Source: Escherichia phage T2. From it: a stretch of DNA of 64,000 bases. Under the pieces are notes generated by a model. The model saw only the letters and a list, made by a program, of their open reading frames with translations. It had not been told where the DNA came from and ran no database searches. The stretch is from sequence record NC_054931.1; one strand, 5' to 3'. This document shows, piece after piece, positions 63,001 through 63,987 of the stretch (position 1 is its first letter; each line of letters starts with the position of its first letter). The position numbers and the translations under genes were made by a program.

Positions 63001-63495
63001 TTATAGATTTTTATACGCGTCACAAGTGCCAGTTCTAAACGTTGCAATGACTCGTTTTGCGCGATTAGGTGTTTGATTATACCATCTACTTTTAGCTAAG
63101 TTAACTGCTGCTTCATCCCAGCGTTTTTGTTGAAGCATACGTAAAGAGTTAGTAAATCCTGCCACACCGGTTTCTCCCATTTGGAAGACCATATTAATCA
63201 ATGCACAACGACGAACCGCATCAAGAGAATCATAAACCGGTTTTAATTTAGCATTTCTCAGAATTCCGCGAACAGCAGCATCAACATCCTGATTAAAGAG
63301 TTTTTCAGCCTCGTCTTTGGTAATTACACCATTGCAATTACGTCCAATAGCTTTATCTAATTCAGATTTAGCAACACTAAGTGATGGACTTTTTGTAAGC
63401 AAATGACCGATGCCAATAGTGTAATAGCCTTCTGTGTCTTTATAGATTTTAAGTCTAAGACCTTCATCTATACGCAACATTTCAAATATATTCAT
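63001..63495 (-). CDS. e: lysozyme (endolysin) e
   Basis: 164-aa reading from internal [37 protein letters not shown]...; SD aggagg 5 nt upstream. Confidence 0.95.
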
Positions 63496-63987
63496 AATAC
63501 CTCCTAAGTATTTATAGAAGGTATTTATAAAATTAAAGAGGTTGTTCATTATTCGGTAAAGTGAAGGACCCATCACATATTGCCACTGAGTACGAGGAAT
63601 AAGAGCAAAAGCGTCCATCTCTGGAATCATAACGCCATCTTTATTTTCAAAATAAGACTCGCAACGGCAATTTCTGAACATCTCATGCTCTACTGGAATC
63701 GTATAATAAAACAACTGTAGGTCTTTATTACTAGAATATTTAAATACACCTAGGTCTTCTAGAAGGTCTGGATTATAATTGCCAAAACCAGTCTCTTCTA
63801 AACATTCTCTTCGTGCTGCATCTAATGCGCTTAAATCAGAATTTTCTACACGGCCCTTTGGAATATCCCAGCGATGTGCCATCATTCCAGTCTTACGAGA
63901 ACCAGTAACCCGACCCATAAATAAATCTTTATCTTCGGTCATAAAGATAATACCAGCTGATAGTGTTTTCATTTTAATTTCCTGCAA
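63496..63987 (-). CDS. nudE: Nudix hydrolase (NudE/e.1-like), no in-frame stop before e
   Basis: Nudix box [24 protein letters not shown]; ORF continues in frame into lysozyme (328-aa ORF in track). Confidence 0.7.
63509..63529 (-). promoter_or_regulatory. two late-promoter TATAAATA boxes upstream of e
   Basis: plus-strand tatttata at 63509-63516 and 63522-63529, inside the Nudix ORF. Confidence 0.5.

Follow-up and report, generated by a model that had tools for sequence, protein, structure and literature searches.

During T4 lysis, lysozyme in the cytoplasm depends on the holin for access to the cell wall, and it is harmless before the holin acts. The T4 gene for this enzyme, e, has two late promoters that have been shown to be functional, and the leader of the T2 gene is stated to be identical to that of T4 (PMC3014915). 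Long early transcripts form a hairpin, by which lysozyme synthesis is lowered about 100-fold, and transcripts that start at either late promoter, without the 5' arm of the hairpin, are well translated (PMC3014915).

The window analyzed here is a stretch of 64,000 nucleotides from Escherichia phage T2, and its bases and coordinates are those of the first 64 kb of the T2 record LC348380 (RefSeq NC_054931). In the ORF listing of the window, positions 63001-63987 of the minus strand form a single stop-free ORF that encodes 328 amino acids if a TTG start at 63987 is used and a product of 323 amino acids and 37.0 kDa if translation begins at the ATG at 63972. LC348380 annotates this fusion ORF as nudE, with a length of 972 nt and 323 aa. 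The ATG at 63972 is the better-supported start: an AGGA, read from the sequence, lies 7-8 nt upstream of it, and T2 records annotate nudE from this codon (146 aa). T4 has an ATG where the window has TTG 63987, and the annotated T4 product comprises 151 aa. The five extra codons, MQEIK (63973-63987, minus strand), would be translated only from the TTG and account for the length of 328 aa. A sequence-only reading of this stretch had reported that there is no in-frame stop codon between a Nudix ORF and the lysozyme ATG and that a 328-aa Nudix-lysozyme ORF results; the former is borne out by both the ORF listing and the sequence, and the latter holds from TTG 63987.

The fusion consists exactly of T2 NudE (146 aa), a 13-aa linker, and T2 lysozyme e (164 aa), all encoded on the minus strand. 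The nudE (e.1) Nudix hydrolase coding region, assigned by identity, Pfam, and annotation, occupies 63535-63972 and runs for 146 codons from the ATG at 63972-63970 to Phe146 (TTT, 63537-63535). Gene e, assigned by identity and Pfam, encodes a T4-type lysozyme at 63001-63495 (164 codons plus stop). A Pfam search places a NUDIX domain at residues 7-110 (PF00293, 48.4 bits, cutoff 21.1) and a Phage_lysozyme domain at residues 175-304 (PF00959, 49.2 bits, cutoff 22.3), both above the gathering score. The NudE part is identical to NudE of T2 MH751506 and shares 145 of 146 residues with the characterised T4 NudE, and this near-identity and the Pfam score together make it a Nudix hydrolase of the T4 NudE (e.1) type. 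The lysozyme part is identical to e of T2 MH751506, shares 158 of 164 residues with T4 e, and retains the catalytic residues Glu11, Asp20, and Thr26. Its ATG (63495-63493) is preceded at a distance of 5 nt by an AGGAGG Shine-Dalgarno sequence (63500-63505), as the sequence-only reading had noted in assigning lysozyme a ribosome-binding site and start codon of its own; domain, catalytic residues, start, and Shine-Dalgarno sequence together identify a T4-type lysozyme gene.

Alignment of the junction with two T2 genomes and T4 reveals the origin of the fusion. The reference sequence is AAC AAC CTC TTT TAA TTT TAT AAA TAC C, against AAC AAC CTC TTT AAT TTT ATA AAT ACC in the window; one gap, at the T run, is the sole difference at the junction from the two T2 records and T4. 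The site of the 1-bp deletion, TTT in the window versus TTTT in the references, lies at 63535-63537 (minus strand) and was located by alignments, whole-window comparisons, and published variant tables. In the TTTT references, the nudE TAA stop codon begins with the fourth T and stands 37 nt upstream of the e ATG. Loss of one T converts CTC TTT TAA to CTC TTT AAT, erasing the nudE stop codon, and shifts nudE into the frame of e, such that the 39 nt between the genes become a linker of 13 codons. The corresponding segment (63496-63534, minus strand) of the T2 and T4 references contains the nudE stop codon and the 37-nt noncoding leader of e. The fusion ORF is thus very probably the ordinary T-even junction, with nudE, the promoters and hairpin, and e in succession, minus one T. 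Its length is not due to chance, since two real genes have been joined by a 1-bp deletion. The fusion ORF is real in the T2 sequence, its cause is trivial, and the finding is an ordinary one. The suggestion in the sequence-only reading that ribosomes might terminate by another mechanism is not needed, because the T2 and T4 references simply have TAA. That reading had also pointed to the T4 e.1-e junction as the comparison in which an overlooked stop codon would come to light, and the alignment does show a one-base indel and an upstream stop codon there. Its observation and coordinates were accurate, and its interpretation stands in part, with the readthrough explained by the indel.

The junction retains the regulatory architecture of the e leader. 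Two copies of TATAAATA, found by motif scan, are situated inside the 39-nt junction, 13-34 nt ahead of the e ATG, one at 63522-63529 and the other at 63509-63516 (both minus strand), and correspond to the known late promoters of e. By exact motif, strand, and place upstream of e, both boxes would qualify as T4 late promoters, and from the first TATAAATA onward to the ATG of e the window and the references are identical. The proposal that two such boxes provide for separate late expression of e therefore agrees with what has been described for this gene (PMC3014915). The accompanying description of the boxes as embedded in the Nudix coding sequence is correct for the window and is a by-product of the lost stop codon, as the boxes are intergenic in the aligned T2 and T4 references. 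In the 64 kb, TATAAATA was observed 4 times against 11.5 expected, each time on the transcribed strand; this depletion is consistent with selection against stray late promoters in the early-gene region. The other two copies are found at 14248-14255 (minus strand), ~30 nt upstream of soc, and at 56885-56892 (minus strand), ~26 nt upstream of rI.1/rI.

An RNA hairpin over the Shine-Dalgarno sequence and AUG of e (63491-63531, minus strand) is indicated by the predicted fold, by paired changes in relatives, and by the T4 description. The leader folds with -15 kcal/mol (z = -3.5), and one of 200 shuffled sequences folds as well. As in a repressing hairpin, the e AGGAGG and AUG are paired with upstream leader sequence, and the late promoters overlap the 5' arm. 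In relatives, the two arms change together (AATACCTCC/GGAGGTATT, ATACCCC/GGGGGTAT, and ATACTCC/GGAG) and stay complementary. In a set of divergent T4-like phages (L013-L029 and L057; about 1460-1503), the hairpin is kept and the spacer is as short as 26-31 nt; these same phages have lost one of the two late-promoter boxes.

Database comparisons show how rare the allele of the window is. A megablast search with the region matches 526 T4-like phage records, of which the six closest, five T2 genomes and SV76, span 1001 nt versus the 1000 nt of the query. Of 503 phage records matched by an 85-nt probe across the site, none is identical to it; the best matches, six T2/SV76 genomes among them, span 86 nt, i.e., carry the extra base. 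The exact 3-T pattern has no match in IMG/VR, in which the 4-T control finds one contig, and none in metagenome contigs or genome contigs. An exact-protein look-up returned neither the 323-aa nor the 328-aa product, and a tblastn search with the junction peptide gave no contiguous 100% match across the junction in 50,697 phage records. A stop codon separates nudE from e in each of 22 divergent T4-like relatives from IMG/VR (NudE identity 54-98%), and a stop-free junction in independent genomes, which would be the mark of a natural bifunctional fusion gene, was not found. Since it occurs in no other sequence compared, the 3-T allele is private to one database record and is neither a conserved nor a regulated feature.

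The length of the junction T run does vary among other records, with TTTT-AA-TTT in many phages and T7 in OZ035785. The latter was considered as a second carrier of the fusion and rejected: its junction reads CTT TTT TTA ATT TTA TAA, with the stop codon present and the genes separate. The T7 run of OZ035785.1 (Tequatrovirus BCH953P2; about 355-375) represents another length variant of the junction T run, and in this phage nudE gains 3 codons, its end falling within the first TATAAATA box.

The same difference can be found in published comparisons of T2 stocks with this reference. Reads of T2-Hancock, a 1972 stock, differ from LC348380 at 18430 (sp), 24427, 24962, 49197 (nrdC.6), and 63534 (Data Set S1, PMC8573959), and at all five positions the window carries the REF allele of LC348380. 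The entry at 63534 is an insertion, T>TA, with read counts of TA:20 and T:0, placed at nudE CDS 438/972 and residue 146/323 and designated c.438dupT p.Asn147fs (PMC8573959). A second laboratory, using breseq with NC_054931.1 as the reference, lists +A at 63537 in nudE (436/972 nt) and also the differences in sp, imm.1, and nrdC.6 that were seen in the Hancock comparison (bioRxiv 10.1101/2025.10.21.683753). The sp, imm.1, nrdC.6, and nudE entries are absent from the unique-mutations sheet of that table (bioRxiv 10.1101/2025.10.21.683753), which suggests that all T2 genomes of that laboratory, the control included, carry these differences. The LC348380 reference is the outlier, two independent T2 stocks having the extra base as a fixed difference, and the nudE-e allele is already known, having been listed without comment in two published variant tables.

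The window differs from T2 MH751506 at only 10 sites and from T2 AP018813 at four, namely the nudE site and three others in the first 50 kb. One of these is an additional T at 18431 in sp (ORF 18421-18699, minus strand), which is private with respect to all other T2 records listed and frameshifts the last spackle codons, such that the window encodes 92 aa ending in NKNNHR and the other records 97 aa ending in NKNIIAEVVGE; the difference is listed in both published T2 comparisons (PMC8573959; bioRxiv 10.1101/2025.10.21.683753). The annotation of MH751506 states that sp mutants "allow survival of lysozyme mutants", and the presence of an sp frameshift and the nudE-e change in one stock is curious and may be a coincidence. 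Another is a C/T difference at 24427. The third is a T7-to-T6 change at 49198 (run 49198-49203), listed as (T)6->7 in the breseq table (bioRxiv 10.1101/2025.10.21.683753), which removes the annotated start of nrdC.6; the ORF then restarts 19 codons downstream and encodes 182 aa. The nrdC.6 gene of this T2 lineage already has a truncation, caused by a C-to-A difference from MH751506 at 48652. Indels common to the window and AP018813, again relative to MH751506, lie at 9329, 11370, 43909, and 46765 and comprise one 1-bp T8-to-T7 change and three 2-bp deletions; at these sites, dda has a longer ORF in the AP018813 annotation, and modB, 49.2, and nrdC.4 are split. Outside the window, LC348380 has three private SNPs within 36 nt at 161202-161237, in and beside ndd.2a, that appear in both published tables, and a 1-bp difference in gene 22 (100460) is reported for the Hancock stock and not by the second laboratory.

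Two origins of the allele have to be weighed first, a mutation in the phage and an error in the record. It is somewhat likelier that a genuine frameshift arose spontaneously and became fixed in the sequenced stock than that the consensus is in error. Among the spontaneous mutations of T-even phages, frameshifts in A/T runs form a major class (Streisinger, Drake). The variation in T-run length at the junction counts toward a real mutation, as do the reported origin of LC348380 as an Illumina assembly and the six private SNPs of LC348380 that appear in the tables of both laboratories (24427, 133104, 161202, 161210, 161237, and 163329). If the change arose purely as an error in sequencing or consensus calling, the actual phage would have TTTT like all others and the fusion ORF would exist in no phage. 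This is a less probable explanation that nonetheless commands a sizeable share of belief, for none of more than 500 relatives and no other T2 genome has the 3-T allele, the extra base is present in two independent stocks without a dissenting read (TA:20 and T:0 in Hancock), and three 1-bp indels each alter an ORF that is intact elsewhere (sp, the nrdC.6 start, and the nudE stop). Of the four private differences that set the 64 kb apart from AP018813, three are single-base indels, a pattern that is also typical of consensus errors. An error is harder to reconcile with the sequencing method, as Illumina seldom miscalls runs of 1-7 T, or with the six private SNPs, which show that the stock is a truly diverged sub-line; moreover, the three indels lie in genes believed to be dispensable, as tolerated real mutations would.

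Two further explanations give the fusion a function. In programmed recoding, the UUU-UAA of normal T2 and T4 would act as a shifty stop at which a +1 slip of tRNA-Phe yields a NudE-lysozyme fusion, and the allele of the window would hard-wire a product that is normally made at a low level. The sequence of the 4-T allele has features that such an event would use: the +1 frame from the stop codon is open and in frame with e (L010), a slip from UUU U to U UUU re-pairs perfectly as read from the sequence, and the common relatives with a 36-nt spacer have nudE and e in one frame with only TAA between them. The relatives do not preserve these features, however. Among the 22 compared, the spacer ranges from 26 to 38 nt, every one of the three possible values of (ATG - stop) mod 3 occurs, several have a closed +1 frame, and the combination of a conserved slippery site and a conserved frame relation, by which a programmed +1 frameshift or readthrough would be recognized, was not found; the frame relation differs even between near-identical phages (TTT versus TTTT). 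No Shine-Dalgarno-like stimulator is evident by eye upstream of the slippery site, and the T4 review makes no mention of a fusion product (PMC3014915). Because the nudE/e frame relation varies among relatives, recoding is not supported and must be regarded as highly improbable, and these comparisons gave no sign of selection for a recoded fusion product. That a bifunctional Nudix-lysozyme protein has been selected as an adaptation of this T2 lineage is scarcely credible. Two intact domains and a linker free of stop codons, as such a protein would require, are present, but neither the nearly identical AP018813 nor any other T2 stock carries the allele, no second change hints at an adaptation of the linker, and the linker itself is the promoter and hairpin leader merely read as codons.

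If the deletion is a genuine mutation, as we favor, its expected consequences can be outlined from the organization of the locus. Ribosomes translating nudE on early and middle mRNA would run through the leader hairpin, and a 37-kDa NudE-linker-lysozyme protein would be made early in infection. Late in infection, the two TATAAATA promoters would continue to provide the normal lysozyme of 164 aa, translated from its own Shine-Dalgarno sequence and AUG. Since lysozyme is harmless until the holin acts, the early fusion protein should be tolerated and the phage should be viable. Cleavage by RegB at the GGAG inside the linker could limit the amount of fusion protein. The chances are about even that the whole of this account is correct, that is, that the deletion is genuine and that a 37-kDa fusion is made from early transcripts by ribosomes that pass the hairpin that blocks lysozyme synthesis until late. 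If it is, this stock would offer a natural way to ask whether a T-even phage suffers from early lysozyme and what role the leader hairpin plays, and a functional link with the sp frameshift in the same stock is conceivable.

The biological significance of the locus is small, as it is a textbook regulatory junction carrying an allele of one record. The practical significance is modest but real, since LC348380/NC_054931 is the T2 reference to which many laboratories map and in its annotation nudE (972 nt, 323 aa) extends over the entire coding sequence of e. Such an annotation could mislead surveys of protein families or fusion genes and the calling of variant effects; one example is the wild-type base that has been reported as a frameshift variant, p.Asn147fs (PMC8573959).

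Among described systems, the locus is most similar to the T4/T2 nudE (e.1)-e junction (McPheeters et al. 1986, reviewed in PMC3014915), with which it shares the leader, the promoters, the hairpin, and the flanking genes. The difference is that the window has one T fewer, with the result that the leader is read as 13 joining codons. The allele also resembles the homopolymer frameshifts of T-even phages, both those attributed to Streisinger slippage and those at contingency loci (bioRxiv 10.1101/2025.10.21.683753), in being a 1-base change in an A/T run. Unlike at contingency loci, the run here is 4 nt long, below the threshold of >=6 nt used in the preprint, and shows no sign of reversible switching. 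There is also a likeness to the RF2-type +1 shifty stop, as the parental allele has a similar UUU UAA context with a +1 frame leading into e. The RF2-type arrangement differs from that of the nudE-e junction, at which the frame relation is not conserved, no stimulator is visible by eye, and no product is known, and in the window the change lies in the DNA rather than at the ribosome.
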